Below the pieces are notes generated by a model. The model was not told the DNA's origin and made no database searches. It saw only the letters and a program-made list of their open reading frames with translations. Shown here in pieces: positions 4,945 through 37,266 of a DNA stretch of 64,000 nucleotides. Both the position numbers and the translations under genes were made by a program. The first letter of the stretch is position 1. Each line of letters opens with the position of its first letter. The DNA is taken from NCBI GenBank assembly GCA_000092065.1, contig CP000585.1. The stretch is one strand, 5' to 3'. Origin of the DNA: Ostreococcus lucimarinus. Taxonomy: Eukaryota.

Positions 4945-5525
4945 TCGCGCGCGCGTCGACGCCCATCGTCATCATGCGCGCGCGCGCGACCGCGAGCACC
5001 GTCGCGCGCGCGCCCGTCGCGCGCGTCGCCCGTCGCCGCGCGCGCGTCGCCGTCGCCGCGGCGCGCGCGCGCGCTGGACGCGCCGACGCCGACGCGAACG
5101 CGACGCCGACGGCCGCGGTCGACCGCCGCGCGGTCGTCGTCGTCGCGCTCGCGTCGTGCGTCGCGCGCGCCGCGATCGCGCCGACGCCCGCGCGCGCGGT
5201 CGATCTCGCCGAGGCCGCCGCCGCGAAGGAGGCGCGCAAGGCGGCGCTGCGCGCGGCGGCGGCGGCGAGCGCGACGTCGGGGCGAGGGGAATCGGCGTTC
5301 GACGCGCCCGAGTACGGCGTGAGCGAGGAGAGCCGCACGCCGAACGCGCACAGTCGACAGGAGGAGGGGCTGAAGAAGGCGGTTCGCGACAACGCGTGAG
5401 CGCCGGAGCGCGCGCGACGGCGCGAAGGGCGTCGCTTTTTGTAATCGTCAAAGTCACACACGTTTTTGTCGAGCGCGCGACGAACGCGCGCGACGTCACA
5501 CGCGCGCGATGGGACGACGACGGGC

Positions 5526-7910
5526 ATGAAGCGCACGCTCGAGGGGACGGTGAAGACGTCGGCGCGCGCGTCGCGCGCGCGGGCGGCGCGTGCGAGCGGG
5601 CGGGCGGTGGGACGGACGGACGCGGTGCTGGCGCGCGCGCGCGGCGCGACGCTCGGAGACGTGCGACGCGAGCAGATCGACGCGGCGCTGCGGTTACTGA
5701 TCGACGAGCAGTGCACGCTGCCGTTCGTGGCGAGGTATCGCAAGGAGAGGACGGATGGGCTGGACGAGGGACAGTTGCGCGCGGTGGCGGCGGCGCACGC
5801 GGAGTGGACGCGATTGGAATCGAAGCGCGAGAGCGCGTTCGAGGCGTTGACGCGGTTGGAGATCGTGGACGAAAGGTTGTTCGCGAGATTGCGCGAAGCG
5901 AGCGCGGTGGAGACGATCGAAGACTTGATGAGCAAGTATAAGACGAAGACGAGCAGTCGCGCGGACAGGGCGCGAGAGCTCGGCTGCGAACCGCTCGCGG
6001 AGAAGATTTTGAGCGACGGCGCGGGGGGGGTCGAGGCGTTAGCGCGCGCGTACGTGAATGGGAATGATGTTCCAGACGTGTGCGAGGCGTTGAGGCTGGC
6101 GAAAGATGTGCTCGCGGAGAGGGCGGCGAACGAGACGAGCGCTCGGGAGGCGGCGAGACGATCGACGTGGCAAAACGGAAGGCTTCAGTGCGCGTTGACG
6201 ACGAATGGGAAGGCGGCGGTGGAGGGAAAGATTGACGATAAAAAGATGAAGAAGATAGCCGACGCGTTGAGGGACTACTACGAGTTCAACGCGCCATTGC
6301 GAAGGGTGAAGCCGCATCAGACCTTGGCGATTTTACGCGGCGAAGCCGCGAAGGTGTTGCGAGTGAAGATTGATTTCGACGTCGCGTGGGCAACGTCGGC
6401 GGCGATGAAAGCCATGGTAGGCTCGAGACGCTTAGGTGGGGGTTGTTATAACGTCGTTAGCGAGGCGGTGGAAGATGGTGTGAAACGGTTGCTCGCACCC
6501 TCCATCGAACGCGAGGCGAAGAGTCGACTCAAGACGGAGGCGATGGAGCGCGCCATCGCAGATTTCGGCGCTAATCTTCGCTCACTGCTTCTTCAACCGC
6601 CGCTGACACCCGCAGCTGTCGTGCTCGGCGTTGATCCAGCGTATCGCACCGGCTGCAAACTCGCCGTGGTTGACCCTACGGGAGCTCTGCTCGATACCGG
6701 CGTCGTACACTTGCCGCAATTCGAGTCGAAGGTGAAACGAGAAGGCGGCGGTCAATCCGCAGCCGCGAGCAAGCTGCAAGCGTTGGTGAAGCAATGGAAC
6801 GTCAAGGCGATCGCGATCGGCGACGGCGTAGCGAGTCGCGAAACCGAATCGCTCGTCGCCACCGCGCTCGCTGGTTTTGAAGGCGTCGGTTGGCGCGTCG
6901 TCTCGGAAGCCGGCGCCTCGGTGTACAGCGCCTCCGAAATCGCGGCGAAAGAGTTGCCGGACATAGACGTGTCATTGCGCGGAGCGGTATCTATCGCGCG
7001 AAGACTGCAAGATCCGATGGCCGAGCTCGTTAAGATCGAGCCCCAGTCCATCGGTATAGGACTGTATCAGCATGACGTCAAGGAGAAGGAGCTCGCTGAC
7101 GCGTTGACGGCGACGGTGGAGAGCGCGGTGGCAAACGTCGGTGCGAATCTAAACACATCCTCACAGTCGCTCTTGTCGCGTATTCCAGGCCTCGGCCCGT
7201 CGCTCGCGGCGAAGATCGTGCGACATCGCTCTGAGCGTGGAAGGTTCCGCGAACGCGCCGCGCTGAAAACCATCGCGGGCGTGGGCGCAAAGACGTATGA
7301 GCAAATAATTGGGTTCTTGCGCGTCCCGGACGCGAAAGACGCGCTGGAGCGCACTTCGGTGCACCCCGAGAGCTACCACATCGCCAAAAAGCTGTTGAAG
7401 ATGCTCGAAAGAGACGTGGCTGAGGTGATTGATCTCACGGCGAGCGACGCCGGCGACACGTCGATGGACGCGCTGAAACGCCTCAAGCCCAAACTCAAGG
7501 CACTTCGCGACGACGTAAAAGACCTCGAGGCGCGCGCTGCGCGCCTCAAGTGCCACCCCTTAACGCTCAAAGACATCGCGAACGAACTCAGCGCCCCGGG
7601 TGATGACGCCCGAGGCCAAGCCGCCGAGCAAAACGTGCTCCGAACGCAAGCGCTCACGCTCGAGGACTTGCAAACGGGCGCCGAAATCAAAAACGCCGTC
7701 GTCCGCAACGTCGTCCCTTTCGGCTGTTTCCTCGATCTCGGCGTCGGCCGCGACGCCCTCCTACACGTCACCGCGATGCGCAAACGCACCGACGCCAACC
7801 CCAACGCCCAAATCGATCCCCACGCGCTCTATCGCGTCGGCCAAACGTGCGCCGTTCGCGTCAAATCCGTCGACATCGCTCGCCAGCGCATCGCCGTCGA
7901 GCTCCCTTAA
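5526..7910 (+). CDS. Tex-like protein (transcription accessory protein; HhH, YqgF/RNase H-like and C-terminal S1 domains)
   Basis: LPFVARYRKERTDGLDEGQLR matches the E. coli Tex N-terminus. YqgF-like VLGVDPAYRTGCKLAVVD. C-terminal S1 (FGCFLDLGVGRDALLHV...VRVKSVDIARQRIAVEL). ORF-track start 5466 is TTG; first ATG is 5526. Confidence 0.75.
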   Translation: MKRTLEGTVKTSARASRARAARASGRAVGRTDAVLARARGATLGDVRREQIDAALRLLIDEQCTLPFVARYRKERTDGLDEGQLRAVAAAHAEWTRLESKRESAFEALTRLEIVDERLFARLREASAVETIEDLMSKYKTKTSSRADRARELGCEPLAEKILSDGAGGVEALARAYVNGNDVPDVCEALRLAKDVLAERAANETSAREAARRSTWQNGRLQCALTTNGKAAVEGKIDDKKMKKIADALRDYYEFNAPLRRVKPHQTLAILRGEAAKVLRVKIDFDVAWATSAAMKAMVGSRRLGGGCYNVVSEAVEDGVKRLLAPSIEREAKSRLKTEAMERAIADFGANLRSLLLQPPLTPAAVVLGVDPAYRTGCKLAVVDPTGALLDTGVVHLPQFESKVKREGGGQSAAASKLQALVKQWNVKAIAIGDGVASRETESLVATALAGFEGVGWRVVSEAGASVYSASEIAAKELPDIDVSLRGAVSIARRLQDPMAELVKIEPQSIGIGLYQHDVKEKELADALTATVESAVANVGANLNTSSQSLLSRIPGLGPSLAAKIVRHRSERGRFRERAALKTIAGVGAKTYEQIIGFLRVPDAKDALERTSVHPESYHIAKKLLKMLERDVAEVIDLTASDAGDTSMDALKRLKPKLKALRDDVKDLEARAARLKCHPLTLKDIANELSAPGDDARGQAAEQNVLRTQALTLEDLQTGAEIKNAVVRNVVPFGCFLDLGVGRDALLHVTAMRKRTDANPNAQIDPHALYRVGQTCAVRVKSVDIARQRIAVELP

Positions 7911-8115
7911 CCGCACCATCGCTTGTGACGAGACTTTTAAAGACCTTCGTTCCTCCATCGGCCGTCGCGGGCGACGCCACGGCGCGCGCGTCCGCGAAAT
8001 TTCCAACCGACGAACCCGCCGCGGGCAGAATACAAGATGCGACGCCTCGCGCTGTGAGATCATCTTCGACCGGCGCGTCACTTCGAGTCGCGCACCGCGC
8101 GCCCGCCGCGCCACG

Positions 8116-10851
8116 ATGCGTGCGAAAGTTCTCGCGACGCTCTCCGTCGCGCTGTGCGCGCTGTGCGCGCTGTGCGCGGGCGCACACGGCGCCGTCATGG
8201 GCATCGATCTCGGCGGTGAGTTTCTCAAAGCTTCGCTCGTCGCTCCCGGCCGAACGCCGATCGCCATCACCCTGAACGAGGTTTCGAAGCGTAAAACGAC
8301 CGCCGCGGTGTCGTTTTTCAACGATGAACGCGCGATCGGGGAGCCGGCGAACGATTTGATGCCGCGATCGCCTACGGATGTGGCGACGCGAGCGAGAGAC
8401 GCTCTCGGCGCGCGCGCGAGCGATGAACGCGTGCGCGCGGTGAAGACGAATTCGAAGCTGGCGTATGAAATTGAAGGAGATGGTGCGAGAGATGGTGCGG
8501 TGAGAGCCGTGCTGGGGAAGAAGAGCTACGCGGCGGAGGAGTTGGTGGGGATGACGCTGGAGTACGCGATGGCGATCGGGGAGGCGGCGGGACGAGGGAA
8601 GATTCGTGACGCGGTGATCGCGGTGCCGCCGTTTGCGTCGCAATCGCAGCGAAGGGCGTTGCGGGATGCGGCGGAGATCGCTGGGTTGAACGTGCTGGCG
8701 ATGAAGAGCGATTTGTCGTGCGCGGCGCTGCAGTGGGGAATCGACAAGGAGTTTCCAGAGCCAAAGTGGGTCATTTTGGTGGACGTCGGACACACGTCCG
8801 CGGGTGCCGCGCTCGTGAAATACAGCTCGTTCTCCAGTGGTAAGGTGAAGAAACAGCACGGGCAATTCGAGATGGTGTCGGTGAAGTGGGACGAAACCGT
8901 GGGCGGCGACGCGCTCGACATGCTCCTCGTCGAGCACTTTCAAGAAGAGTTCAAACAAAAGCACGGTACGGATTTATCCACGATTCCGCGCGCTGTCGGT
9001 AAGATGCGTAAGCAAGTTCGCAAGACGAAGGAAATCCTGTCTGCGAACAAAGAAGCGCCGTTTAGTGTGGAATCATTGCACGACGAAATTGACTTGCGAT
9101 CGAAAATCACTCGCGACGAATTCACTACGCTCGCCGGGGATATTTTCGAACGCATGACTGGTCCGTTGCGAGCAATCGTGGCCTCGCTCGGCGACTTCAA
9201 CATCACGCTCGATGAAATCGAGGCTATCGAAGTCATCGGCGGGAGCACGCGCGTGCCCGGAGTGAAGGAGGAGATTGGAAAAGCCATCAATGGTCGCAAG
9301 TTTGACGTGCACCTCGACGCGGACGAAGCCGTGGCCATGGGCGCAGGTCTTTTCGCCGCCAACATGTCCACAACGTTCCGCATGCGAAAGTTTGGCGCCG
9401 CGGACGCGATGCCACATGGAATGACGTATGAAGTTACACCGAGCGACGATTTTACGTCGGGTGAAGCGGCCACGCTCGTTCCGGCGTTTGCGAATTCGCC
9501 GCTTCGCCAGCGAGTGCAACTGCTCAATCGCACCGAGGACGCTAAGTTCACCGTGAACCTTGATGTGTCGAACGGCTCACCGTTACCTCCGGGCACAGAC
9601 ACCGACCAAGTCATGGTCGTCGATGTCACCGGGGTGAAGGAGGCGATGGCAAAGTACAACGACACTGTGGGCAAGATGAACGTGTACTTTGAGTTTGATG
9701 CCAATGGCGTGTTGGATGTCTACGAGGCGGTGTACGCGGTTGAGATCATCGACTACGTTCCGGAAAAACCCAAAAAGAAGCCGAAAGTGGAAAAGACAAA
9801 GGTCGATAACAACGCAACAGAAGCCACCAACGTCACGGATGACGAATCGTCGGCGACTGAAAACGCAACCGAAGCAGAGATGAACGCAACGGCTGCGGAA
9901 GACGTCACGGAAGCCACTGAAAACACCACCGCAGAAGAAGTCGTGGAAGAAGAGGAGAATCCCAAAATGAAAATGCGCCGCCGCGTGATGAAGACTTCGC
10001 TTGAAGTTAAAGTTTCGGGCTTGCACATGGAACCGATGACGCAAGCGCAACTTGAAGCTTCCGTGTCTGTGCTCGGTGAGTTGCGTAAGGTTGACGAAGC
10101 TAAGCGCGCGCAAGAAGCGGCTAAGAGTAACCTCGAGGCGTACATTTACGCCATCCGTGCCAAGCTCGACGAGGATGAAATTCAAGTCGTGACGACAGAG
10201 GAGGAACGCGAAGCTTTGAAGGAGGAACTTACAGACAAAGAGGATTGGCTGTATATGGACGGTGCAGATTCCACCACAGAAGTGTTCAAGCAAACTCATG
10301 ACGACCTCAAGTCTAAGGGCGACGCCATTGAGTTCCGCGCTAAGGAAATGACGCGACGACCTGCGATGATTGCGAAGGCGAGAGCGTTTATCGAAAAGGC
10401 CAAGCCCGAAGTAGAGTCTTGGCCGGAAAAGAAACCGTGGTTGAACGAAACGCACGTCGCGAACTTACTTGAAGAGATCAAGCAATTCGAATCGTGGCTC
10501 GACGAGAAGATTGAGGCACAAGACAAGTTGGCGGCGACTGAAGCGCCAACGCTCGAGTCAACCGAGATAAAAATCAGCCAACGACCCATTGAGACCAAGT
10601 TCGGCAAGTTGAAGAAAAAGTCCAAGCCGAAACCTCCAAAGGTTGAGAAGAACGAGACAGAAGCGAATGAAACGGATGCGAACGAAACGATCGCGAACGC
10701 AACGGATGCAGACGCGCCTACAGACGAGCCGCCGGCGGAGGACGTCGCCGGAGGAACCGATGCGGATCAGTCCGCGGAAGAAGAGCAGGTTCAGCGCGAG
10801 ACAGAGGACGAGCAAACTCCCGATCAAACGCCTCCCAAAGATGAACTTTAA
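8116..10851 (+). CDS. Hsp70-superfamily ER chaperone Grp170/HYOU1 (ORP150) with signal peptide and C-terminal KDEL
   Basis: Signal peptide MRAKVLATLSVALCALCALCAGAHG, then VMGIDLGGEFLKASLVAPG (HYOU1 N-terminal signature). Ends ...TPPKDEL. ORF-track start 7600 is in upstream non-coding frame; true ATG is 8116. Confidence 0.8.
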   Translation: MRAKVLATLSVALCALCALCAGAHGAVMGIDLGGEFLKASLVAPGRTPIAITLNEVSKRKTTAAVSFFNDERAIGEPANDLMPRSPTDVATRARDALGARASDERVRAVKTNSKLAYEIEGDGARDGAVRAVLGKKSYAAEELVGMTLEYAMAIGEAAGRGKIRDAVIAVPPFASQSQRRALRDAAEIAGLNVLAMKSDLSCAALQWGIDKEFPEPKWVILVDVGHTSAGAALVKYSSFSSGKVKKQHGQFEMVSVKWDETVGGDALDMLLVEHFQEEFKQKHGTDLSTIPRAVGKMRKQVRKTKEILSANKEAPFSVESLHDEIDLRSKITRDEFTTLAGDIFERMTGPLRAIVASLGDFNITLDEIEAIEVIGGSTRVPGVKEEIGKAINGRKFDVHLDADEAVAMGAGLFAANMSTTFRMRKFGAADAMPHGMTYEVTPSDDFTSGEAATLVPAFANSPLRQRVQLLNRTEDAKFTVNLDVSNGSPLPPGTDTDQVMVVDVTGVKEAMAKYNDTVGKMNVYFEFDANGVLDVYEAVYAVEIIDYVPEKPKKKPKVEKTKVDNNATEATNVTDDESSATENATEAEMNATAAEDVTEATENTTAEEVVEEEENPKMKMRRRVMKTSLEVKVSGLHMEPMTQAQLEASVSVLGELRKVDEAKRAQEAAKSNLEAYIYAIRAKLDEDEIQVVTTEEEREALKEELTDKEDWLYMDGADSTTEVFKQTHDDLKSKGDAIEFRAKEMTRRPAMIAKARAFIEKAKPEVESWPEKKPWLNETHVANLLEEIKQFESWLDEKIEAQDKLAATEAPTLESTEIKISQRPIETKFGKLKKKSKPKPPKVEKNETEANETDANETIANATDADAPTDEPPAEDVAGGTDADQSAEEEQVQRETEDEQTPDQTPPKDEL

Positions 10852-10940: not shown

Positions 10941-12050
10941 CTAATCCACCTTCTTGGAAGGCAAGGAGCGCTCGTTCGGCGCGCCTCGGAACACGGCTGG
11001 GTACGCCAAAGACTCACTCCCACCTCTAAGCTTGAGTTGATGCTTTCTAAATTCCTTATCCGTGCCAAACATCCAGTCGCACCACGTGAAAACGCTCGAG
11101 TACGGCCCTTCGAACGTCTTGTGATGGAAATCGTGGTGCACCGCGCCACCCCAAAATGGAATCAAATTTGTGGGATTCCACGGCACGTCGTAGCCAGAGT
11201 GATCCTCCACCGTTTCCACGAGCCTGAAAAACAACCAAACCCACAGCGTCACCATGTGCTTGGCGAAAAACAACGGCCCGAGCAACGTGCCGATGCCCAA
11301 AAAGAACGTCTCCACCGGGTGCGCGTACTCGGCGGCGATGCCGAACGGAAATTTGTGCTCGTGATGAATCTTGTGCACGTACTTGTACACCCGCTTATGG
11401 TGCAATCCCCTGTGAACCCAGTAAAAGTAGAAATCTTCAATCGCGAAAAACACCGGAATCTGCCACAACAAATCCCTCGATTTCGGCAACGCCTCCATCG
11501 CCAGCGAAAATCCAAAGTACGGCGCCACGAAATAAAACATCATTTGCATCGGCAACTGAATGAACACGTGCGACTTCAAAAGCTTCGTCAGGCACTTCAT
11601 CACCATTTCCTTGCTCGGCGTTTTATCCGGCTGTATCTTCCATCGCTTAAAGTATTCAAACTGATCCATCGCCAACCACGGCGTCCACGCGCCGAAGTAC
11701 ACCGCCTCGTGGTACGCGAACGTCAGCGGACCCGCGATGACGAACGGGTGAAAGTTATCCAGCACGACGCGCCAAACTTTCGCGAACATCGCGTCGACGC
11801 GTCGCTCGAGCGCGAGCGCGGCCTCGAGCGCGCGATCGACGAGGGGATCTTTCGACGCGCGGCGCGCGAATGCGGTCAGGTGCGACGTCAACGCGTCCGC
11901 GGACGCCGCGTGCGCGAGCGTCGCGGCGCCGGCGACGACGAGCGCGACGGCGAGGATCATCCTCGCGCCGTGATCGGGCATGGCGGGCGACGACGCGCGC
12001 GCCGGCGAGTGCGGCAGCGCAAGATGGGAGTCAGCCGCCAACGTCATCAT
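10941..12050 (-). CDS. sterol C4-methyl oxidase (SMO/ERG25, fatty-acid hydroxylase superfamily)
   Basis: Histidine boxes HRGLHHKRVYKYVHKIHHEHKFPFGIAAEYAHPVE and HHDFHH. FEYFKRWKIQPDKTPSKE as in ERG25/SMO. ATG ATG at 12050. Confidence 0.7.
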   Translation of the reverse strand: MMTLAADSHLALPHSPARASSPAMPDHGARMILAVALVVAGAATLAHAASADALTSHLTAFARRASKDPLVDRALEAALALERRVDAMFAKVWRVVLDNFHPFVIAGPLTFAYHEAVYFGAWTPWLAMDQFEYFKRWKIQPDKTPSKEMVMKCLTKLLKSHVFIQLPMQMMFYFVAPYFGFSLAMEALPKSRDLLWQIPVFFAIEDFYFYWVHRGLHHKRVYKYVHKIHHEHKFPFGIAAEYAHPVETFFLGIGTLLGPLFFAKHMVTLWVWLFFRLVETVEDHSGYDVPWNPTNLIPFWGGAVHHDFHHKTFEGPYSSVFTWCDWMFGTDKEFRKHQLKLRGGSESLAYPAVFRGAPNERSLPSKKVD

Positions 12051-12221
12051 TTTGGATAAAATGTCGCCGACGCGCGCGCGCGCGCCGCTCGAGTCGCGAA
12101 ACCGTCGCTCGCCGCGCCGTGCCGCGACGCGCGTGGCGCCGAGCTAAAAAACAATACAAACTACACCATCTACCGCGCGCGCGCGAGTCGCGCGCTCTAA
12201 ACGCGTCGTCGTCGACGCGGC

Positions 12222-12731
12222 TCACCGTCCCCTGGCCTCGAGCGAACGCGAACAAATATCCGCGCACTCAAACAAGCAGTACTCCCTCGACCGAAAGCTG
12301 TCCTTGAACACGATCGGGTCGCGACGAACGCTCGCCGGCCCCAATCCCGGCCCCCCGCCGCCGCCGCGCGCGCACGTCGCCAAGCATTTATTCGCGCACT
12401 TTTCCACCGCCTTCCCGTTCGGCCCCGACGTGAGCGACTTCAGCGACCGCCTCGCGCGCGAATCGCTCTCGCTCGCGCGCAATCCGTCCGGGACGTCTTC
12501 GATGTAAAACTCCGCGCGCGCCGACGGCGCGTGCGCGCCGACGACGACGCACGCCGCGACGCCGCACGCCGCGCGCGCCAACGCCGCGCCGTCGAACGCG
12601 TCGAACGAGCGACCGCGCCGGCGCGCGTCGTCGCGCGCCGTCGCGCCGGCGCGCGTCGTCGCGCGCGCGTCGCGCCGCGCGCGCGTCGACGCCGTCCCGA
12701 GGCGGCGCGGCGTCGCGCGCGCGAGCGTCAT
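12222..12731 (-). CDS. candidate small Cys-rich protein (two CX3CX3C motifs), uncertain
   Basis: ATG at 12731. R/A-rich leader then EFYIEDVPDG...EKCANKCLATC...REYCLFECADICS. The 3' part has mixed, coding-like codon usage with lower GC than flanks. No homolog recognised. Confidence 0.25.
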   Translation of the reverse strand: MTLARATPRRLGTASTRARRDARATTRAGATARDDARRRGRSFDAFDGAALARAACGVAACVVVGAHAPSARAEFYIEDVPDGLRASESDSRARRSLKSLTSGPNGKAVEKCANKCLATCARGGGGGPGLGPASVRRDPIVFKDSFRSREYCLFECADICSRSLEARGR

Positions 12732-12769
12732 CGGCGTCGCGTTGTCGCGCGCGAAGCGACACTTCGCGC

Positions 12770-13912
12770 ATGCCGAGCGTCGCCGTCGTCAAGTTCGGCG
12801 GCGCCGTGCTCACGGACAAGCGTCAACGCGGCGTCGTCGACGCGCGCGGGCTCGCGGATTGCGCGCGCGTCGCGCGACTCGCGCGCGACGCGGGCGCGTC
12901 GTTGATCATCGCGCACGGCGCGGGGAGTTTCGGACACGGTGCGACGCGACGGACGCGCGCGACGCGACGGACGCGATGGACGCGACGCGCGACTGACGCG
13001 CGCGGTGGCGACGCGGTCGCAGCGGAGGCGAAGGCGTGCGGGTGCGCGCGCGGCGGTGACTTGCGGGACGCGGCGTTCGCGCTGGGCGTCGACGGGACGC
13101 GAGCGAAAGTGCTCGAATTGAATCGACTCGTCGTCGACGCGCTGCGAGATGCCGGCGTGAACGCGCGAGGGATGACGCCGTGGCGCGAGGGGTGGCGAAC
13201 GCGAGGGCCGGGGCGGCCGGAGACGAGCGGACGAGACGAAGGACGCGCGGTGCTCGACGCGGTGCGCGACGGCGTCGTGCCGGTGATACACGGCGACGTG
13301 GTCGAGGACGTCGCGCAAGGCACGTCAGTGTTGAGCGCGGATACGATCGTCGAGATGTGCGCGAAATGGGCGATGGAAGAGTGGCCCGATGAGTGCCCGC
13401 GAGTGGTGTTTTGCAGCGACGTCTTCGGCGTCTACGACTCGCCGCCGACGACGCGAATCATAAACGCCGACGTCACCGACGGCGACGTACCGCTCCGCGT
13501 GAACGAAACCGAAACCGCCGTGCTCTTACGCGACATCATCGTCGACGCCGACGCCGACGCGAGCGATGGCACTCGCGTTCCCTGGCGATGCGCTCGCGCG
13601 TCGCCGCTCGCGCGTCTCGCCGAAGCCGCCGACGCCGCCGCCCTCGACGCCACGTTCGCCATCGACGACGCCATCGCCGACGTCACCGGCGGTGTTCGCG
13701 CCAAGCTCACCACCGCGATCGCCATCGCCTCGTATCTTCCCCCAGGCCCTCCCCGCGTGTTCCTCGCTCGGCCGGGCGCGTTTGCCGCCGAACCGTCGCG
13801 CGTCTCCGATCACGCCCTCAACGCCATCCTCGCCTTCGACGCGCGCGGCGCGCCCGACGATGCGGCACTGAATAATTTTATCGGCACCGCCATCGCGCGC
13901 CGCGCGCCGTAG
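12770..13912 (+). CDS. isopentenyl phosphate kinase (amino-acid kinase family); two exons 12770..12938 and 13023..13912
   Basis: VKFGGAVLTDK, HGAGSFGH, HGDVV, DVTGGVRAK match plant and archaeal IPK. An 84-nt in-frame intron 12939..13022 is inferred from a GTGCGACG donor, CGACTGACG branch point and CAG acceptor; removing it deletes an IPK-atypical TRRTRATRRTRWTRR insertion. Confidence 0.6.
   Translation: MPSVAVVKFGGAVLTDKRQRGVVDARGLADCARVARLARDAGASLIIAHGAGSFGHGATRRTRATRRTRWTRRATDARGGDAVAAEAKACGCARGGDLRDAAFALGVDGTRAKVLELNRLVVDALRDAGVNARGMTPWREGWRTRGPGRPETSGRDEGRAVLDAVRDGVVPVIHGDVVEDVAQGTSVLSADTIVEMCAKWAMEEWPDECPRVVFCSDVFGVYDSPPTTRIINADVTDGDVPLRVNETETAVLLRDIIVDADADASDGTRVPWRCARASPLARLAEAADAAALDATFAIDDAIADVTGGVRAKLTTAIAIASYLPPGPPRVFLARPGAFAAEPSRVSDHALNAILAFDARGAPDDAALNNFIGTAIARRAP
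12939..13022 (+). other. putative in-frame spliceosomal intron in IPK (84 nt)
   Basis: Donor gGTGCGACGCGACGG, branch point GCGACTGACGCG 24 nt upstream of CAG acceptor. Length is a multiple of 3, so the ORF track reads through it. Confidence 0.5.
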
Positions 13913-13956
13913 CGCCGATTTCCCCGTCTCGCGCGTCCCGCCTCGCGTGTCGTCCC

Positions 13957-16900
13957 ATGTCTAGAGTCCCAACCCTCCGCGCTCCGCGCGTCGGTCCCCA
14001 GTCGTCGCCTCTCGCGCCCGTCATGGCGCGCGCGAGCCGAGGCGTCGACGCGTCCGCCGACGCGAATGCCGACGCGTCCGACGCGCCCGCCGACGCGCCC
14101 GACGCGACGTCGCCGCACGTCGACGCGGCGGTGGGCGCCGACGACGTCGCGCCCACCGCCGCGATCGCGCCCGACGCGCAATCCGCGCCCGACGCGCACG
14201 ACGCGAGCGACGACGACGCGCCGAACGCCGCGAAATCGGAGAATAAAAACAGCACCGGTCGCGGAAGCGGACGCGCGAGCGATGGACCGCACGGTGGCGG
14301 CGGCGACGGGACGCTGACGGTCACCCCGGACTCGCCCGCGGACGAGACGTGGCGCGCGCGGCGCGGGCCGCTGGACGCGAGCGACGGTGGACCGTGGACG
14401 AGCGAGGACAGCGCGGGTGCGTGAGATTAATTCGACGCGCGCGACGACGCGCGCGGGACGGGAGAGGGCGCGAGAGGGTGGTGGCGACGCGATGATGGAG
14501 TGGACCTAGTGGTGGATCTCTCGCGACGCGCGACTGACGACGGATGTACCGACGGAAACAGGGCCGCAACCCGTGGACATGTACGGGAAATTCACGTGGA
14601 AGATTGAAAACTTTTCGGAAATCAGTAAGCGGGAATTGCGATCGAACGTGTTCGAGGTGGGCGGGTATAAGTGGTACATTTTGGTGTACCCGCAAGGATG
14701 CGACGTGAGCAATCACCTGTCGTTGTTTTTGTGCGTCGCCGATTACGACAAGCTGTTGCCGGGATGGAGTCATTTCGCGCAGTTTACGATTGCGGTGGTG
14801 AATAAGGATCCGAAAAAGTCCAAGTACAGCGATACGTTGCACCGGTTCTGTAAGAAGGAGCACGACTGGGGTTGGAAAAAGTTTATGGAGCTCACGAAGG
14901 TGCTCGACGGTTTCACCGTGGCGGACACGCTCGTGATTAAGGCTCAGGTTCAAGTGATACACGAGAAAGTCGCGAGACCTTTCAGATGCCTAGACCCGCA
15001 GTACAGGCGCGAGCTCGTTCGGGTGTACCTTACGAATGTCGAGGTGCGTAGAGGCGAAAAGCGACGTCTCGAGCCGTCGAACCGAAACATCCATCGTGCT
15101 GATGAAAACACATATCAAGCATTTCTCGTTCTGAGCAATATATTCTGATGAACATCTATACACCCATAGAATCTGAACGATGGATGGATTCGAGCTCGAC
15201 TGACTCGAGCGCGCGCGTGGCGAGACAAGCGACGACGACTGACTTTATTTTCATCTTGACCAAACGCAGGGCATTTGTCGAAGATTTTTAGATGAGAAGC
15301 GCGAGAAACTGATGACGATGCGCGCGGACGAAGAGCAATGGTCAAATCTTCGTCAATTCTGGAACTCTCGCGAGGGGAAAGAGAAGGTACAGCTCACGAT
15401 GGAGAAGTCTGACATTCTGCTCAAGGGGATCGTCAAGCGCTTCTTCAACGAAAAGGAAGTGACGTCGACGCTCGTCATGGATGCACTTTACTGCGGCTGC
15501 CGCGCGTTGGACATCGCGGAAAATGACTTGGAAGCCAAGGCGACCTCCGTGAGTACCTCGAATAAGTGCTCTGTGGCCATGAGCATCGTGCAAAACAAGA
15601 GTGTTTTGACGGGTGACTTTGTCTCGGCGCTCGAGCGGGCCGCTGACGGAACCGCGTTTGACGCGGACGAAGAAGACAAGAAATCCGCCTCGGATGACCT
15701 GTCCGCCACCGATGCCGTCGAACGCGATGAAAAACGATTAGCCGAACTTGGTCGTCGCACCATCGAGATGTACGTTCTCTCGCACGTGTTTGTCAACCGC
15801 GTCGAAATCGCGTTTCGCGAAGCCGAGGCGTTGATGCGCCAAGAGGCGCTTATCGCTGAGGAGGAAGAAGCCGAACGACTCGCACAAGAGCTTGAAGGTC
15901 AGAAGAAGAGCAAGAAGCAAAAGCAAAAAGAGCGTCAACGACAGAAGAAGGCTATCGAAGACGCTGAGAAGGCTGAAAAGGAGGCGGAAGAGGCTCGCAT
16001 TCGCGAAGAAGCCGAAGCGGCGAAGGAAGCTGAGCGCGCCGCCAAGGCAGCTGCTAAGGCAGCAGCGTTGGCAGAAGAGCGCGCGCGCGAGGAGGCGGAA
16101 GCGGCCATCAAAGCAAAGGCTGAAGCCGAAGCTCGCGCCGCGCGCGAAGCCAAGGCAGCGGCCAAGGCTGCCGAGAAGGCGAAACGAGAAGCCGAGGAAA
16201 AGGCCAAGGAGGACGAGGCGAGAAAGCTCAAGGAGGAAGCCGAAGCTAAGGCCGCCGCGGAGGCCGCGGCGAAGGCTATTCCGTCCCCTAAAGCTGATAG
16301 CCCTTCGACGCCCACCCGCACGAAGTCCATGTCGCAAGTTTCGTCACCTTCGAAGGTTATCCCGGCTCCGTTGTCGAACGAAGTGAGCACGTTGCGTTCG
16401 CGAATCTCTCAGCTCGAGCTTCAGCTCGACGAGAAGACGAGCGAATGCGCGCAACTTACCGCGGATTTGGACAAAGCGAAGGATATTATTTTGCAACTAC
16501 GAAGCGAGATGGTGAGCGGTGTATCGTCGATGTCGATGCAAAAGCAGTCGTCCATGGAGTCGCTTGGCGATGTCGCTCGTACCGCCCAGGCGGCTTCGGC
16601 GATGCTCGGCGATAGCACCAATATCGTGCGCATGGGATCATCGAGCATGATCGCGAATGGCGCATCCAACGGTGCGGTGACGTCGGGTATGCAGCCGATT
16701 TTGGCGAGCGCCAAGTCGCAGCCTCCGCTTCCTCCCGGGCCTCCGCCTCCAGGAAGCGGCGACGTCGGTCCGCCGCCGCCGCCGCGCGGTCCGCCGCCGC
16801 CTGGTTCGGCGCGCGTGAACGAAACTGGACCTGCATCGCCGCAACACAGTTCTAACAGCGGCTTACCGCCTTCCTTCGCCGCCATGGCGGCTGGATCGCG

Positions 16901-19914: not shown

Positions 19915-22356
19915 TCACATCATCTTTCGAAAGTTCTCTCTAATTTGTTCTAGTTTGTGCGTCGGATTCGCGCTCTTTTTCATTTCCTTACCCGCGCATT
20001 CCACCGCTTCTTCGACGAGCAAATCGATGTCGTCGCCGATGCCTCGAAGGATGGCGTCAATTTCCGATCGGAGGCGTCGACATCGTTTCACGTCGATCGG
20101 CGTTAAAGCGTCATCGTCGACTTGATCGGATTTCGATTCCGCCTTCGAGCCATCGTCACCGATGGTTTGCGTCGCGGTAGTTTCCTTCGACTTGGCGCTC
20201 GCGCGAACGCGTGCGAGTTCTTCTTCGTAATCTTTGAGCATTTGTTTCGTTCGCGGGTTGAGGGTCGGATCGATTTCGTTGGAAATCGTTCGCATGCGAC
20301 ACGACGCGGCGTGGCCTTCCGCGTTGTACGGCGACACGTCTTCCTTCCCACAAGAACCGCACACGTGGTATCCAGAGCACTCGCCTTTCTTCTGCGAGCA
20401 AAATCCCTTCGCGCTACCGCCGAGGAGGGCCTTTTCAAACTCGCGAATGCCGACCATGGACTTCATGAAGTATAAAAAGCATGGTTGCTTGTTCGCGTCC
20501 GGAATCACACCGCACACAGAGTGCAGTTTACACTCTGGCTTGTGTTTGCCGCGTCCTTCTTCACCGCAGTGACCGCAAATGTGTCGAGAGTGACATCGAT
20601 CGCCCTTGCCGCACAACGCCCAGCCACCGCTGCTTCCGATTTTAAACTTTTGCGAGTCGCTCTCCATCTTGAAATAGTCTCCGAGAGAGTGCAAGTAGTA
20701 CTTTCGACACAAATCGACTGGAGCAGAGTCGGCGAAGACGGCGTGTAAGCGACACGTCGGTAAATGCGCGTCGTTGCCGCTCTTTCCGCACGCGCCGCAC
20801 ACGTGCTCGAGCATGCACTTGTCGCTGCGGGGACACAAATTCCAAACGTGCTTTTCTTGATCCCATCCGTTACGCAAAGCTCCGCCGGTGTCGTCCACGG
20901 AGTTCAAGTAATAATCCAAGCACACTTTGTTCTCCACGCGTTTATGAATGTTGGCGTAGAGTGACGGACACATTCCAAACGTGTGACGCGGCGACTCGCA
21001 GAGTTGACACACGTGTCGACTCACGCACCCGTTGCATCCGAACTTATCCCCGCGCAAATTAAACGCAGTGCATATTTCACCAGCCGACGGCTCGCGCTGC
21101 AGATCGCGGAACACGCTGTTCGTCGGTGGCGCGGAAACTTCCTCCTTGATGGAATCGTCGTCGAGCGCAGAATCGCCCAACGTCTCCGTGGCTTGACGAA
21201 GTATGCGCGATCGATTCAACAGATCTGTGAGTTCGGCCGGGGTGGCGTCCAGACCCAGTGCATCCGCTTCGAATCGACCGGCTGTGAGTTCGGCGAGGTC
21301 GATTTCGTCTGCATCGCCGCCACGAAGTCCGGAAATGTCTTCGTGCGGCGCCACGTCGACACCATCTTCTAGCGCGCCTCCGAGGACACCACTCGCTGAG
21401 GCGTCCACGGAAGAGAAAAACGGACTCAATTCTCTGTCACCCGCTGACGGGACGTTGTGCTCGAGTTGTTGATGCGAGTTCACCGACGGTGAAGTGTATC
21501 CGAGAGGGATGTTCGCGCCCACGCGCGCGTCTCCTGTATCACCTCCGAGAAGCGCCGCGGAAAAATCACTCATCATACTTTCGATGTAATCATCACCGCT
21601 CGCTCGCGCTGGCGCGGCTTCGCTCGGCGACGCGAAGGCTGGCGAAAAGAACGACGGCGACGCGGCGCCAAACGTACCCAGCGGCAGCGACGACGCACCA
21701 GGGCCGGACGCACTCCCCATCGGCGGTGTCTGCCCGTTCGTCGACGTCGGCCCACGAGTCGCGGTGCCCCCGCGCGTCGTTCGCGGCGTCAACATCGGCG
21801 ACTTCGTCCGAGTCGGTTGCCCCGTCGGTTGCCCCGCCGCGCGCGTCGGCGCCGGCGGCTCGCTCTGTATTATCCCTCCCGCTTCATCCTTCCTCAAAAT
21901 CCGCGGACTCGCCCCTTTCATGATCCCGCTCAACATCCCCAACACGTCTTGGTTCGTCGCTCCCATCATCTTCGCCGGCGGCGGTCCGCTCGGCGAGCCC
22001 TCCGTCGACGTCTCCCCGCGGTTCGCCGGCGCCCCGACGTTCGCGTTCGTCGCCTCACCATCATCCAGCACGCACACCCGTTCGCCGCGTTCCACTCGCA
22101 CCACGCGTATCGCTCGCGCGTTCACCAGCTCTCGCTCCACGTTCGCGTCGACGCACACGAATTCTTCCGCGTTCAGCGCCGCGCGCGCCGCGCTCGAGCT
22201 CACCAGCACCCGATCTGGGCTCTTCAGTCCGATCAGAATCACCCCGAGCCGTCCGCCGCCCGCCGAGCGCGTCTCGACGACGTATCGCTGTTTCTTCGTC
22301 CCGTCCGCGCCGAGCGCGAGCTTGAACACGCGCTTGGCGTCCGCGGGGGCGGGCAT
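19915..22356 (-). CDS. large protein with four tandem Cys-rich repeats (C-x4-5-C-x5-C-x2-C...H...C..H), unclassified zinc-finger-like
   Basis: ATG at 22356; 813 aa. The C-terminal half has four repeats of about 60 aa (consensus C..YYL.S...W..C...D.C..H.CG.CG.....H...C.LH). N-terminus and a Pro/Ser/Thr-rich linker are unrecognised. Confidence 0.5.
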   Translation of the reverse strand: MPAPADAKRVFKLALGADGTKKQRYVVETRSAGGGRLGVILIGLKSPDRVLVSSSAARAALNAEEFVCVDANVERELVNARAIRVVRVERGERVCVLDDGEATNANVGAPANRGETSTEGSPSGPPPAKMMGATNQDVLGMLSGIMKGASPRILRKDEAGGIIQSEPPAPTRAAGQPTGQPTRTKSPMLTPRTTRGGTATRGPTSTNGQTPPMGSASGPGASSLPLGTFGAASPSFFSPAFASPSEAAPARASGDDYIESMMSDFSAALLGGDTGDARVGANIPLGYTSPSVNSHQQLEHNVPSAGDRELSPFFSSVDASASGVLGGALEDGVDVAPHEDISGLRGGDADEIDLAELTAGRFEADALGLDATPAELTDLLNRSRILRQATETLGDSALDDDSIKEEVSAPPTNSVFRDLQREPSAGEICTAFNLRGDKFGCNGCVSRHVCQLCESPRHTFGMCPSLYANIHKRVENKVCLDYYLNSVDDTGGALRNGWDQEKHVWNLCPRSDKCMLEHVCGACGKSGNDAHLPTCRLHAVFADSAPVDLCRKYYLHSLGDYFKMESDSQKFKIGSSGGWALCGKGDRCHSRHICGHCGEEGRGKHKPECKLHSVCGVIPDANKQPCFLYFMKSMVGIREFEKALLGGSAKGFCSQKKGECSGYHVCGSCGKEDVSPYNAEGHAASCRMRTISNEIDPTLNPRTKQMLKDYEEELARVRASAKSKETTATQTIGDDGSKAESKSDQVDDDALTPIDVKRCRRLRSEIDAILRGIGDDIDLLVEEAVECAGKEMKKSANPTHKLEQIRENFRKMM

Positions 22357-22603: not shown

Positions 22604-23670
22604 CTACTTCTTGCGCCTGACGGCTGGCTTGCGCTTCTGCGCCGGTTTACGCTTCGTCGCGGGCCTGCGAGCGGACGCGCCCGAGGCTTTGGAGGTCTCC
22701 GCGGCGCGCTTGCGCTTGGCGCCGACGGCGACGTCTTCGTCGTCGACGTCTTCGTCCTGGTCGAAGAGCGAACCGACGCCGAAATTCTCCATGCCGCCCA
22801 TCGCGCTCGGGTCTTCGCGAAGCTGCACGAACTCGCGGTGTACGCTCTCGATCTTGGCTACGTCGGCGTTGACGGCGACGACGACGACGGTGCCGGCGCT
22901 CGAGACGACGCGCGCGTTGTACATCACGCCCTTCATGTCAACCTTGAGCGCGCGCGAGGACTCGGCGAGCCAACGACCCACGGCGCCGGTATCGCCGTCT
23001 AAATCCACCGCCTCTCCGGCGCCTTCGATCTCAAACAAAACCTTGGACTTACCGCCTAAATTCGCCGTCGCGACGAGCTCCACGGCTGTCGAAGACGACT
23101 CCGCCGCCGGCTTCGCCGCGAGCGCCTTCGCCGTCTTCCCTTCGCTCGCCTTCGCCGCGTCGCCCGTCTCCCTCGCCGTCGTCGTCCCCATCGCGTCCTC
23201 ATCGCCACCACCGTCCCTCACCGCCGCCCTCGCCTCGTTCTCCTTCCCGTCGTCCGCGTCCACGATTCTCAAATCGTCGTCGCTCGACGAAGCCGCCGCC
23301 GCCGTCGCCGCCGCGCGCGTCCGCTCCGGCGACTTAAATTTCTCCACCCACGCCGGTTCGCTCTCGCTTCCCGATCCATCGTCGTCCGCGATCGTCGGCA
23401 GCGTCACCGTTCGTTTCTTCGTCGGCGTCGTCGTCGCCGTCTATCGCGCGTCGCGTCGTCGTTTCGTTTCGTTGCGTCAGTCGGTCCGCCGCGTTTGAAT
23501 TCCAGACAGCTCGTCGCGCGCGCGTCGCCATCCATCCATCCATCCATCCATCGTCGTCGCGTCGCGTCGTCGTCGTCGCGCACCTCGATCGGACTCGCGA
23601 CGGCGCGCAGCAGACTCGGTAACGGTTTGAACTCGTCGTCGTCGCTCGAGTCGTCGTTGATGACGATCAT
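22604..23670 (-). CDS. hypothetical acidic protein with basic C-terminal tail (NLS-like); exons 23670..23584 and 23440..22604
   Basis: Exon 1 MIVINDDSSDDDEFKPLPSLLRAVASPIE ends at a GTGCGCGACGAC donor. Intron 23441..23583 contains (ATGG)6 and branch point CCGACTGACG with acceptor GCGATAG. ORF-track start at 23407 is GTG inside exon 2. Ends ...KRKPAQKRKPAVRRKK. Confidence 0.45.
23441..23583 (-). other. intron (143 nt) containing a (CCAT)6 microsatellite
   Basis: On the minus strand: donor GTGCGCGACGACGACG, branch point CCGACTGACGC, acceptor ATAG. Phase 0 on both sides. Confidence 0.5.
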
Positions 23671-33869: not shown

Positions 33870-36449
33870 TCACTCCGAGCCTTGCTTGAGCTTGCTCGGA
33901 TCGATGGATCCGATCATTCCGCCCATACCGTCGCCTCCGAACTGCTTCATCGCGATGCGTTGTTCCTCGAGATCGATGGTTTGCTCTTGGTTTTCGAGCG
34001 CCTCTCGCGCCTTGGCGCGCGCCTCTTCTCGCGCCTTGGCCTCGGCTTGCTTTGCGGCTTCTTCGGCAACTTTTTTCGCCTCTTCAGCTGCTTTCTTTTC
34101 CGCTTCCAGTCGCTCGCGCTCGGCTTGCGCCTGCGCCTCGTCCTCTTTTCTGGATTCGTCGAGTTGTTGCTTTTGTTGAGCCGCGGCTTCGAACTCATTC
34201 CACAAGTCATCCGGAATGGCATCCTGCGTCGCCGCTTGCGCGCTCGCGTTCACTGGCGCGTCAGAACTCGCCAGATTTTCCCAACCTGACGGATTTTGGA
34301 CGTTCACCGCCGCCTTGGAGACGTTTTGTTTGATGCCCGGAGCCTCCTTGGCGAACTGGTTAGACGACTGGTCGACGGGCGCGGCGGCACCGGTGACGGC
34401 GGCGCGCTTCTCCGGATTACTGCCAGCACCTTCCGCGCTATCCATGCTCGAAGTGTCTGAATCCGAATCTCCGGAATCGGTGTCGGTATCGGAGTCGTCG
34501 TCGACCGGTTTCTTTTCTGGCTTTTGAGCCGACGGCCCGGCGCTGTTGAGATGAACGACGTCTTGGTAGCTTCCTCCGGTCTCTTGAACCTGCTGCAATG
34601 TTTGCTCGACAGCCGCAAGCTCGCGCGCGGCTTGCGCTTCACGCATTTTCGCCTCAAGAAGCTGCTCAGCGGCGTTGAGCTTACGCTTCTTCGGACGAAG
34701 CACGCCATTGACGTATTTGTGAAGTTTCCAGAGCGTGGCCGCGGGAAGCTCTTCGATGTTGATTTCGATCTCATCTTCCTCCCCTTGGCCCAAAGCTTGT
34801 TTCGCTTCACTAACAATTTGTACGACTCGATCCTGCTTGTCTTCGGGAAGTTCTCCAAGCAACATTGTGAGCTCAGACTTTTCATCAAAAGTCATATCGC
34901 GCGAGGGCGTCGGCGCCGGTCGCGGACGCGAGTAGCCTCCTTCGCTCCTGAATCCACGCTCTCGCTTGATTTCCTTTCGAATCCGGCCTTCCTCCTTGTA
35001 CTCCTTGTAAGTGTCTTCATCCATGCGCGCGTCATCGAAGTCGAAGTCGGGATCTTCATCTGGGTCTCTTTGTCTTTTGACCGCCCCGCGAGACCGAGAC
35101 TTTGGTCGCGGCATCGGTTCGTCGTCCCAATCATCTTCGTCGTCTTCCTTGTATATAACTTCTTGCTTGGCGCGCTTCAGTTCCTCAATCTCGCGTCTGA
35201 CCTTTTCGAGTTCCGCTCTAGCGTCTTCGAGGACAGCCACCTCAAGACTGATGGGCGTGGCGGGCGTGTTGCGAATTTCAATGTCCTCGTGCTCTCGAAT
35301 TTCGTTTTCGATTGAGACGTAGTCTTCGAGATCGCTATTCAACCACGCGGTTTCGAATAACTGGCGGACGGTTTCAGTCATGACGCCAGCATCTGACGCC
35401 GTGCCGTTGTACAGAAGGCCGTTGGAGAAGATTAAGCGCATGTCGGCGCAAAACTCAGCGGGGTTGAGATATGCCTTGGTGTCGAGCTTCGTCTTCACCG
35501 TGCCCATATCCATCGGGTTCTTGATGATGTCAAAGTAGTCTGGCACCCCATGCTTTTTCGGGTCGACCGGCACAAGGAAAATCTTGTGATACTTGTGCTT
35601 CTTCGACGCTATTAAAACTTCACGGCAACGTCTTATCATTTCCTTGCGTCGAGCGTCGCGCGCCTGCTCAACTTCGTACTCCTTTTGCAAACGCTGCGTC
35701 GTGACAGCGCGGCCATCCCTTAACTTCTTGACGCCCGCAAGATTTGCCGCGGAGCCCTTCTTCTTCGACCCGTAGGACGAGACGCCGTAACCATCGTACG
35801 GTTGCGTCGCCTTGATCGGTCGCGCCGACGCCGGACGCGGCGGAGGTAACCTGGCGAATTGTAACTGCTTCTTCGCCTCGATTTCCGCCACCTTGGTCTT
35901 GGCCTCCTCGATGGCCGCGAGACGCTTCGCCAACTCTTCCTTCTTACGACGCTTTTGCTCTTTGCGTTGCAGCTTCCGCAAAGCAAGCTCCTCTTCCGTA
36001 CACTCTTCGTCCGGTTTTTCTGGAAGCTTTGCCGAATCGTCGCCCGGCGCCGCAAACATCCCGCCGCCCTCGTCGTCGCCCGACGCGAACATCCCGTCAT
36101 CTACCTTGGCCGACGGTCTACGCACGCGTTTCTTACTCTCCAACCAATTCGAGTCAAACGCCGCGTAATCACCCGCCGGCATGTACGCGTACCCTTTCGG
36201 CGCCTTCATCGACTGATTCAGCGTCAACAAGATCTCCCCGCGGGCCGCCGACACCGCGTTCGCCGGCCACGTCGCCGCCGCCGCGTTCGCACCCGCGGCC
36301 GCCGCCGCCTCCGTGATCGCCCCATCCTCCGCGGGCGTATTCGGCGCGTCCGTCATCGCCCCATCTCCCGCCTCCGTCGCGCGCGCGTCTGGTTTTTCCC
36401 CATCCGCCGCCCCCGCTGGCGCCGTCGCCGCCGCCGCCACCGCCGTCAT
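33870..36449 (-). CDS. BET-family bromodomain protein (bromodomain plus ET/NET domain; GTE-like transcription factor)
   Basis: Bromodomain HKIFLVPVDPKKHGVPDYFDIIKNPMDMGTVKTKLD...YNGTASDAGVMTETVRQLFETAW. ET-like EEDEIEINIEELPAATLWKLHKYV. Coiled-coil and acidic C-terminus. ATG at 36449. Confidence 0.75.
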   Translation of the reverse strand: MTAVAAAATAPAGAADGEKPDARATEAGDGAMTDAPNTPAEDGAITEAAAAAGANAAAATWPANAVSAARGEILLTLNQSMKAPKGYAYMPAGDYAAFDSNWLESKKRVRRPSAKVDDGMFASGDDEGGGMFAAPGDDSAKLPEKPDEECTEEELALRKLQRKEQKRRKKEELAKRLAAIEEAKTKVAEIEAKKQLQFARLPPPRPASARPIKATQPYDGYGVSSYGSKKKGSAANLAGVKKLRDGRAVTTQRLQKEYEVEQARDARRKEMIRRCREVLIASKKHKYHKIFLVPVDPKKHGVPDYFDIIKNPMDMGTVKTKLDTKAYLNPAEFCADMRLIFSNGLLYNGTASDAGVMTETVRQLFETAWLNSDLEDYVSIENEIREHEDIEIRNTPATPISLEVAVLEDARAELEKVRREIEELKRAKQEVIYKEDDEDDWDDEPMPRPKSRSRGAVKRQRDPDEDPDFDFDDARMDEDTYKEYKEEGRIRKEIKRERGFRSEGGYSRPRPAPTPSRDMTFDEKSELTMLLGELPEDKQDRVVQIVSEAKQALGQGEEDEIEINIEELPAATLWKLHKYVNGVLRPKKRKLNAAEQLLEAKMREAQAARELAAVEQTLQQVQETGGSYQDVVHLNSAGPSAQKPEKKPVDDDSDTDTDSGDSDSDTSSMDSAEGAGSNPEKRAAVTGAAAPVDQSSNQFAKEAPGIKQNVSKAAVNVQNPSGWENLASSDAPVNASAQAATQDAIPDDLWNEFEAAAQQKQQLDESRKEDEAQAQAERERLEAEKKAAEEAKKVAEEAAKQAEAKAREEARAKAREALENQEQTIDLEEQRIAMKQFGGDGMGGMIGSIDPSKLKQGSE

Positions 36450-37266
36450 CGCCTCGGAATCCGCAAGATCTGATCAAACAGTCACGACTTCGCCAACTTC
36501 TCCTACGCGTTCGATCGCACAACGTCGCGCCGTCAGTATTCGTTCGTTCCGCGGAAAATTCCACCGCCGCTTCGCCCTCGCGCGCGCCCCGCGTCGCGTT
36601 TCCCGCGCGATGAATGTTTCAGAAATTCAACCCTCGGAATCGCATTCGCGCGCCCCGCGCCCTCGCGCGCGCGTCCCGCGCCCGCCGACGCGTCGCGCGC
36701 GCCGGATCGCGCGATTTCGGATCGCGCGCGTCCGCGTCGCGCGCCCGCGACGCGCGCGCGCGGCGTAAACCGCGACGAATCGTCGACGATAATTCTTTGA
36801 GAGAATGACGTCGGCGCGACGATCTCGACGCCGTGTCGCCGCGCGCGCGCGCCGTCGCGCGTTGCGGACGTCGCGCGCGCGACGCGCTCTTCGCGTTTCG
36901 CGCGCGCGCTTCGCGCGGCGATCGAACGGCGCACCTTTGGACGGAGAGGAGGGGAAAAGAAGTGGCGCGAGGCGGCGGAGGGCGCCGCATCTGGACGAGC
37001 TCGCGAGCGACGGGCTCGACGCGACTCGACGCGCGATCCAGGTCGCGCCAGAGCGCGCGCGCGAAGTCCTGAGCGTAAAATACAATACAACGACGCGAGA
37101 AGCGTCGATGAGCGACGAGACGCGACGCGAACGCGCCGCGCGCGTCGATGGACGAGACGCTATCGAGCGGCGCCGAAGCGCGCCGCGAAGGAGCCGAGGC
37201 GGCGGTTCGGCCGAGGCGACGAAACCGCGCGTCCGAACGAACGATCGGCGACGCGGCGCATCGTCA

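Follow-up and report, generated by a model that had tools for sequence, protein, structure and literature searches.

The window analysed here, a stretch of 64,000 nucleotides from Ostreococcus lucimarinus contig CP000585.1, carries at positions 19915..22356, on the minus strand, a single-exon gene for a Cys-rich protein of 813 amino acids. The coding sequence is complete, running from a conserved ATG start codon through residue 813 to the stop, and the open reading frame is where an earlier note on this DNA had reported it. A search of 5.8 billion proteins recovered ten orthologue clusters that are colinear with the query, with 87-100% coverage and 51-100% identity, and the alignment of the ten extends from a common start codon to a common end. 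Guanine-plus-cytosine (GC) content differs by codon position in the order GC3 (0.69), GC1 (0.61), GC2 (0.50). The ratio of nonsynonymous to synonymous substitution rates (dN/dS) for the whole protein is 0.16-0.29 in three independent pairs of close orthologues. Gene order around the locus, which includes a WD40 protein, DnaJ, a 267-residue orphan and others, is held in every lineage examined. Because full-length colinear orthologues, conserved synteny, codon-position GC content and low dN/dS all agree, the open reading frame is a genuine conserved gene. The protein is 52-65% identical between lineages, and it is not unusually fast-evolving, since neighbouring housekeeping genes are just as divergent (49-61% identity). 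No signal peptide or membrane segment was found in the 813 residues, where the maximum Kyte-Doolittle mean over 19 residues is 1.03, and the product is most likely intracellular.

Cysteine is concentrated in one part of this protein, with 25 of its 29 Cys falling within residues 429-686. Four Cys-rich units, designated R1 to R4, follow each other here and together span residues 426-692. R1, a compact unit (residues 426-476, 20929..21081), has the arrangement C429-x11-C441-x2-C444-x3-H448-x-C450-x2-C453-x4-H458-x4-C463. R2 (residues 477-547, 20716..20928) has C479-x28-C508-x5-C514-x3-H518-x-C520-x2-C523-x7-H531-x3-C535, R3 (residues 548-623, 20488..20715) has C550-x31-C582-x5-C588-x3-H592-x-C594-x2-C597-x7-H605-x3-C609, and R4 (residues 624-692, 20281..20487) has C626-x26-C653-x6-C660-x3-H664-x-C666-x2-C669-x12-H682-x3-C686; all four lie on the minus strand. 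The general unit is C-x(11-31)-C-x(2-6)-C-x3-H-x-C-x2-C-x(4-12)-H-x(3-4)-C, providing eight potential metal ligands. A fuller form of the pattern is C..(Y/F)(Y/F)(L/M).S..[insert]..(W/F)..C-x5/6-C-x3-H-x-C-x2-C-G..-H-x3-C. The core C-x3-H-x-C-x2-C occurs exactly four times in the six frames of the window, each time in this gene.

The units are not equally related to one another. When the orthologue alignments of single units are compared by hhalign, R2 matches R3 with an E value of 2.8e-12, R2 matches R4 with 5.3e-8, and R3 matches R4 with 1.9e-5, over 58-63 columns. R1 aligns to the other units over a 13-residue core only, with E values from 4e-4 to 1e-2 and probabilities of 4-34%. Searches of the units against the window by tblastn agree (E values 7e-13 to 5e-4). 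R2, R3 and R4 carry an insert of 15-20 residues after the conserved start C..YY(L/M).S. Because R1 has no insert and matches the others over its core alone, the array, as read from sequence, is three full units plus one compact unit. The earlier note had described four tandem repeats of about 60 residues that made up the C-terminal half. The count of four stands, but the lengths are 51, 71, 76 and 69 residues, with R1 reduced to the core, and the placement does not hold, because the array accounts for 33% of the protein and is followed by a conserved tail of 121 residues. The same note's consensus missed a His that never varies and that stands between Cys 3 and Cys 4 of the pattern; the string that the note gave as an example, WNLCPRSDKCMLEHVCGACGKSGNDAHLPTCRLH, is located at residues 505-538.

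Once the overlooked His is counted, the unit reads as a CCCH-like half followed by a CCHC-like half. The definition of the plant CCCH finger is C-X4-15-C-X4-6-C-X3-H (PMC2267713). The zinc knuckle has the spacing CX2CX4HX4C, with Gly at positions +1 and +4 after the second Cys and an aromatic or hydrophobic residue after the first (PMC9100697). The C-x5-C-x3-H of this array is the constant half of the former, and R1 contains an exact instance of the latter, so the earlier statement that the spacing fits none of the fingers it named, CCCH among them, is not supported.

All 32 ligands, eight in each of four units, are invariant in the ten orthologue clusters, at an overall identity of 51-62%. 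Mean column identity is 79% for the repeat block as opposed to 57% for the whole protein, and in the three independent close pairs dN/dS is 0.05-0.14 for the repeat region against 0.23-0.64 for the linker that precedes it. Because invariance of 32 out of 32 ligands is joined by such column identity and such low dN/dS, the constraint, far above chance, carries the signature of a structural metal site. R3 is the best conserved unit, with residues 581-600 reaching 93% identity across orthologues, and it has an additional invariant Cys, C615, beyond its eight ligands. Three His, H503, H556 and H589, are like C615 invariant in all orthologues and outside the eight-ligand sets. For these four residues a role as alternative ligands, as a site between units or in contacting a bound partner is conceivable. 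The repeat region is basic, with an isoelectric point of 8.4.

Three further parts of the protein, also encoded on the minus strand, show conservation of their own. The N-terminal region, residues 5-100 (22057..22344), is a conserved globular region, specific to this family, with 33 invariant columns, a mean column identity of 74% and dN/dS of 0.09-0.30. It has no match in Pfam or PDB, and a profile search with it through the 5.8 billion proteins returned only fragments of this same gene. Its alternating hydrophobic stretches are compatible with a small beta-rich domain, a plausible assignment. Residues 101-425 (21082..22056) form a linker, delimited by composition and conservation profile, that is of low complexity. 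Its first half is basic and rich in Gly, Ser, Pro, Ala and Thr, while its second half is acidic, with a net charge of -23. Near-invariant short motifs occur along it, namely DVLGMLSGIMKGASPR, LTPRTxRGG, DDYIESMMSDF, DRELSPFF, GALExGVDVAPxEDxSGL and LGLDATPAELxDLLNRS, and these look like docking or activation motifs; the last four belong to the acidic half. The C-terminal tail, residues 693-813 (19918..20280; dN/dS 0.17-0.34), contains a conserved stretch NExDPTLNPRTKQLLKDYEEEL, a variable spacer, and a conserved end IDVKRCRVLKSEIDAxLRG...NPxxKLEKIRE that is probably helical; no Pfam match to the tail was found. In the most divergent lineage (GC content 0.58; loci L024-L031, for example L024 at 6474-9458; proteins P0009 and P0010), an insertion of about 100 residues (VKFSPSEMRDIKNILV...KYSKDELMELMRQMK) extends the tail. 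This same lineage has about 25 additional residues before R1, and its four zinc units are unchanged.

The distribution of the gene, for which the earlier note had proposed a survey, is very narrow. An exhaustive HMMER search of 1.84 billion cluster representatives with a profile of the repeat block yielded six proteins. Two are representatives of the orthologues, and two more (P0056 and P0057) are pieces of this gene that carry frameshifts. The remaining two, P0058 and P0059, are retroelement-like fragments that match R1 only, with E values of 2e-4 and 4e-4, and are 48% identical to it. Their compact unit is C-x9-C-x3-C-x3-H-x-CQLCESPDHPYTRC and shares HVCQLCESP.HP...CP with R1. When metagenomes were scanned with the R1 profile, 26 loci came up, all of them orthologues, single-copy, from four or five lineages, with GC contents of 0.58-0.63. 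Nor is there any sign of a prasinovirus copy, because a scan of viral contigs found none that carries the gene. The gene is single-copy and restricted to a small clade, which we take to be marine green picoalgae, most likely Ostreococcus-like members of the Mamiellales. Assembly GCA_014466335.1 holds two lineages of the gene, 56% identical to each other, one at L001 (JACLAB010009613.1) and one at L024 and L025 (JACLAB010008440.1 and JACLAB010001621.1), the latter pair being identical duplicates. Because two lineages of a single-copy gene occur in one assembly, the assembly is a metagenome.

The two retroelement-like fragments come from short metagenome contigs of 519 and 1650 nucleotides, P0059 from positions 252-1472 of L004 and P0058 from positions 128-436 of L005. 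Just upstream of its unit, P0058 has a gag-polyprotein aspartyl-protease signal (E value 3e-5), and a retroelement connection is possible for this reason. The neighbourhood of a retroviral-type protease is a typical setting for nucleic-acid-binding knuckles, a point in favor of the nucleic-acid-binding interpretation given below. In both fragments the unit comes straight after a shortened stretch of retropepsin-like sequence (...DSGA...VADGS|LICYAYNN...), and for a retroelement this order is odd. They may represent a host gene, a chimera or what is left of a Gag-Pol, and the contigs are too short to decide among these. No relatives turned up when metagenomes were scanned with P0059.

The window is eukaryotic in character and compact. 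Its other genes include those for ClpB/Hsp104, Hsp70, DnaJ, a BET bromodomain protein and a Piezo channel; no tRNA was found in the 64 kilobases. The upstream neighbour of the repeat-array gene, on the same strand at 22604-23407 (minus), encodes an acidic low-complexity protein of 267 residues without a Pfam match. Its synteny holds in every lineage, with identities of 53-58%, and it is a second clade-restricted orphan. On orthologous contigs, whose source samples are marine, a Ycf54 gene lies nearby. The Piezo-type mechanosensitive channel is encoded by an open reading frame of 2458 residues at 47419-54795 (minus), which matches the Piezo THU9/anchor (E value 1e-34) and cap (2e-28) and includes a fibronectin type III domain. 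The one part of the window with low GC content, 0.50 at 48-54 kilobases as opposed to a mean of 0.61, falls on this frame. Spikes of 0.70-0.72 over a background of about 0.60 occur at 4001-6000, 12001-14000 and 36001-38000.

The interpretation that we favor, and to which we give about an even chance of being right, is that of an intracellular protein whose four modules, each with one CCCH-like and one CCHC-like zinc site, would together act as a multivalent binder of single-stranded nucleic acid, probably RNA, while its other conserved parts would recruit partners. In each module, ligands 1-4 (Cys, Cys, Cys, His) would form a CCCH-like finger. In R2, R3 and R4 the loop that joins the first two Cys of this finger is expanded to 26-31 residues and is predicted to be helical. 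One residue on, ligands 5-8 (Cys, Cys, His, Cys) would form a finger like the CCHC knuckle, canonical in R1 and with a longer loop from Cys to His in R2, R3 and R4. Because there would be two four-ligand fingers to a module, and four modules, the protein would hold about eight zinc ions. Multivalent binding to single strands is proposed by analogy with both parent finger types. Contacts to bases and backbone would come from the conserved aromatic pairs (YY or YF after the first Cys, W or F before the second) and from the basic residues. Partner proteins would be recruited by the N-terminal domain, by the short conserved motifs of the acidic linker and by the helical tail.

Weak sequence matches hint in the same direction. 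Pfam was scanned with the whole protein, with each unit, with 30 long and 11 compact units taken singly, and with ten full-length orthologues. The strongest match was AIR2-like_ZnK4, a CCHC knuckle model, on R1, with 15.3 bits against a cutoff of 27 and E values of 0.017-0.02. This sub-threshold match was seen in six of the 11 R1-type units, and on R1 only. Also below threshold were zf_CCCH_4, in two of the 30 long units (E value 0.044) and in one of the ten full-length proteins (0.71), and zf-nanos, in two of the 30 long units (0.046); the remaining matches were noise of the kind that Cys-rich sequences give. Structure prediction, which the earlier note had suggested as a check for a metal-binding knuckle, gave a layout that fits as far as secondary structure goes, at low to moderate confidence. 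AlphaFold2 modeled the whole repeat region, from an alignment of ten orthologues that was too shallow, with a predicted local distance difference test (pLDDT) score of 44. R2 alone, modeled from a 30-sequence alignment of R2, R3 and R4 from all orthologues, reached a mean pLDDT of 63.7, with about 70-74 in its ligand-dense core. In both models one helix starts as soon as the first Cys is passed and another lies within the insert; a helix of three residues separates Cys 2 from Cys 3, and isolated beta bridges surround the CxxC. In the CCCH fingers of TIS11d, too, a helix follows the first Cys and a short one lies between the next two. The modeled layout would be in keeping with a CCCH finger followed by a knuckle, as known from the TIS11d and nucleocapsid structures.

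Several observations weigh against this reading. No Pfam family reached threshold in any scan, whether of the protein, its units, the 41 single units or the ten orthologues, and fold searches gave no match. Profile searches of the repeat region against PDB sequences returned nothing with an E value of 10 or better, and a single-sequence search returned two chance-level matches only (E values 0.64 and 2), to the linker and the N-terminus. The description of the repeat as unclassified was borne out by these model-based tests, and the confident match to a known zinc-finger family that would have contradicted it was sought and did not appear. Models for NF-X1-type and TRAF-type fingers are in the Pfam library, and none of them matched. 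Neither half of the unit fits the spacing rule of its family in all units. A conserved aromatic residue before the His is typical of RNA-binding CCCH fingers, and here an aromatic between the third Cys and the His occurs only in R4, being absent from three of the four units. The acidic and hydrophobic motif DDYIESMMSDF would suit a transcription activator equally well. Because the confidence of the models (44 and 64) is low to moderate, sequential as opposed to interleaved pairing of ligands is not established by them and is something that we infer, as are zinc binding and nucleic-acid binding.

In an alternative that we consider unlikely, the protein is a sequence-specific transcription factor whose zinc modules read double-stranded DNA and whose acidic linker serves as an activation domain. 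Invariant motifs of the acidic half of the linker, DDYIESMMSDF and DRELSPFF for example, resemble acidic activation motifs, tandem zinc modules with a basic surface such as this one are common in transcription factors, and passages in two sources describe some plant CCCH and CCHC proteins as DNA-binding (PMC9100697, PMC12777328). Neither half of the unit, however, is like any known finger that reads double-stranded DNA, such as C2H2, GATA, Zn2Cys6 or Dof, whose models are present in Pfam and gave no match with an E value of 10 or better, and the elements that can be recognized, C-x5-C-x3-H and CX2CX4HX4C, belong mainly to single-strand binders. Somewhat less likely still is a proposal about origin, compatible with the single-strand-binding reading, that the array, or at least R1, derives from a captured Gag nucleocapsid-type module of a retrotransposon, duplicated and expanded, and that the protein would now have a nucleic-acid-related role such as silencing or chaperoning. 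The only non-orthologous matches to the array are P0058 and P0059, with their likeness to R1 and the protease signal of the former, and their contig has a GC content of 0.61, like that of the host clade. Yet the E values of these matches over the whole library are marginal, no reverse transcriptase or integrase is in view on the 519- and 1650-nucleotide contigs, the unit stands after the protease remnant rather than before it, and scans for further copies gave orthologues only. Transfer from host to element would be equally possible.

We regard as improbable that each unit is a single interleaved double-zinc domain of the cross-brace sort, similar to RING, PHD or treble-clef domains, serving in protein interaction or ubiquitin ligation. 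The central C-x3-H-x-C-x2-C does resemble the middle of RING-like signatures, and ligands 4 and 5, one residue apart, are unusually tight for independent fingers. There is also a weak match to the Cys-rich region of rotavirus NSP1 in seven of the 11 R1 units (E values 0.3-0.8), and one unit matches TRAF3_RING with an E value of 0.99. The spacing of the ligands led us to turn this reading down. RING and PHD domains need C-x2-C as ligands 1-2 and C/H-x2-C as ligands 7-8, but here ligands 1 and 2 are separated by 11-31 residues and ligands 7 and 8 form H-x3/4-C. The long variable loops fall between ligands 1-2 and 6-7, as opposed to 2-3 and 6-7 in cross-brace domains. R1, moreover, holds a complete canonical knuckle, a unit that folds alone, and none of the RING, PHD and zf-C3HC4 models scored better than an E value of about 1. 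Far less probable than any of these is a disulfide-bonded repeat of a secreted or extracellular protein, without metal. Chance-level matches to S_locus_glycop (three of the 30 units, E value 0.0013) and to carboxypeptidase A inhibitor (two of the 30) are what speaks for it. It was rejected on ligand spacing, CxxC and C-x3-H being typical of metal sites, and because the protein has neither signal peptide nor membrane segment; in addition, two His in each unit are no less invariant than its Cys, and what remains of the protein is a disordered linker, long and acidic.

A bolder form of the double-zinc reading, which we put forward tentatively and hold to be doubtful, is that the unit of about 70 residues represents an integrated domain not previously described, in which a CCCH-like site with a helical insert packs on a CCHC-like site to make one fold. 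Such units would constitute a new nucleic-acid-binding family confined to Ostreococcus-like picoalgae, possibly derived from a retroelement nucleocapsid-type module that was amplified in place. Were the favored double-zinc reading correct, the lineage would have built a multi-zinc array for binding nucleic acid from two ancient finger types by fusing them one residue apart, inserting a helical loop and duplicating the unit. A domain now without a model would be added to family databases, and a seed alignment of the unit would mend the annotation of a gene whose product annotation pipelines at present call hypothetical and to which they assign no domain. Attention would be drawn, too, to a single-copy regulator, conserved and under strong constraint, in marine picoalgae of ecological importance. 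These organisms have very small genomes, and each gene they retain is likely to matter. The very narrow distribution limits the impact of the finding.

Comparison with known systems can be made for each half of the unit in turn. CCCH fingers, as in TTP/TIS11d, CPSF30 and plant C3H proteins, share with it ligands 1-4 (Cys, Cys, Cys, His), the half C-x5/6-C-x3-H, exact in R2, R3 and R4, the aromatic pair after the first Cys, the tandem arrangement, and, in the models, the helix after the first Cys and the short helix between the second and third. The differences are in the variable spacers. The first is 28, 31 and 26 residues in R2, R3 and R4, where 4-15 are allowed, and the middle spacer of R1 is two residues, or three in two lineages, where 4-6 are allowed, so that each of the four units breaks one variable spacer of the rule C-X4-15-C-X4-6-C-X3-H. 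A further difference is the fusion to a second zinc site across a gap of one residue.

CCHC knuckles, found in the nucleocapsids of retroviruses and retrotransposons and in cellular proteins such as Air1/2, CNBP and Lin28, share the last four ligands (Cys, Cys, His, Cys). R1 has their spacing exactly (C450-x2-C453-x4-H458-x4-C463). R2 and R3 depart from it with spacers of two, seven and three residues, thereby placing three extra residues before the His, and R4 with two, 12 and three. R2 (CGACGKSG) and R3 (CGHCGEEG) retain the Gly at both +1 and +4 after the second Cys, R4 only the first Gly, and R1 (CQLCESPR) neither. Next to the first Cys, where an aromatic is usual, R2, R3 and R4 have Gly and R1 has Gln.

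Two families combine more than one zinc site in an RNA-binding protein. Nanos resembles the unit in having a compact double-zinc RNA-binding module, and its second site, C-x2-C-x7-H-x4-C, shares C-x2-C-x7-H with R2 and R3. Its first site is CCHC where the site here is CCCH, its last spacer is four residues where the spacer here is three, and zf-nanos did not reach its gathering score in any of the 30 long units, 28 of which had no match to it whatever. CPSF30/Clipper-type proteins, to which no sequence similarity was detected, resemble this protein in having CCCH fingers and CCHC knuckles in one RNA-binding chain. They present a block of five CCCH fingers and then a separate knuckle or knuckles, whereas here the two kinds alternate in a fused eight-ligand unit that occurs four times. 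Judged by its spacing, the unit is best described not as wholly foreign but as two known finger types that have been fused and expanded in an unusual way.

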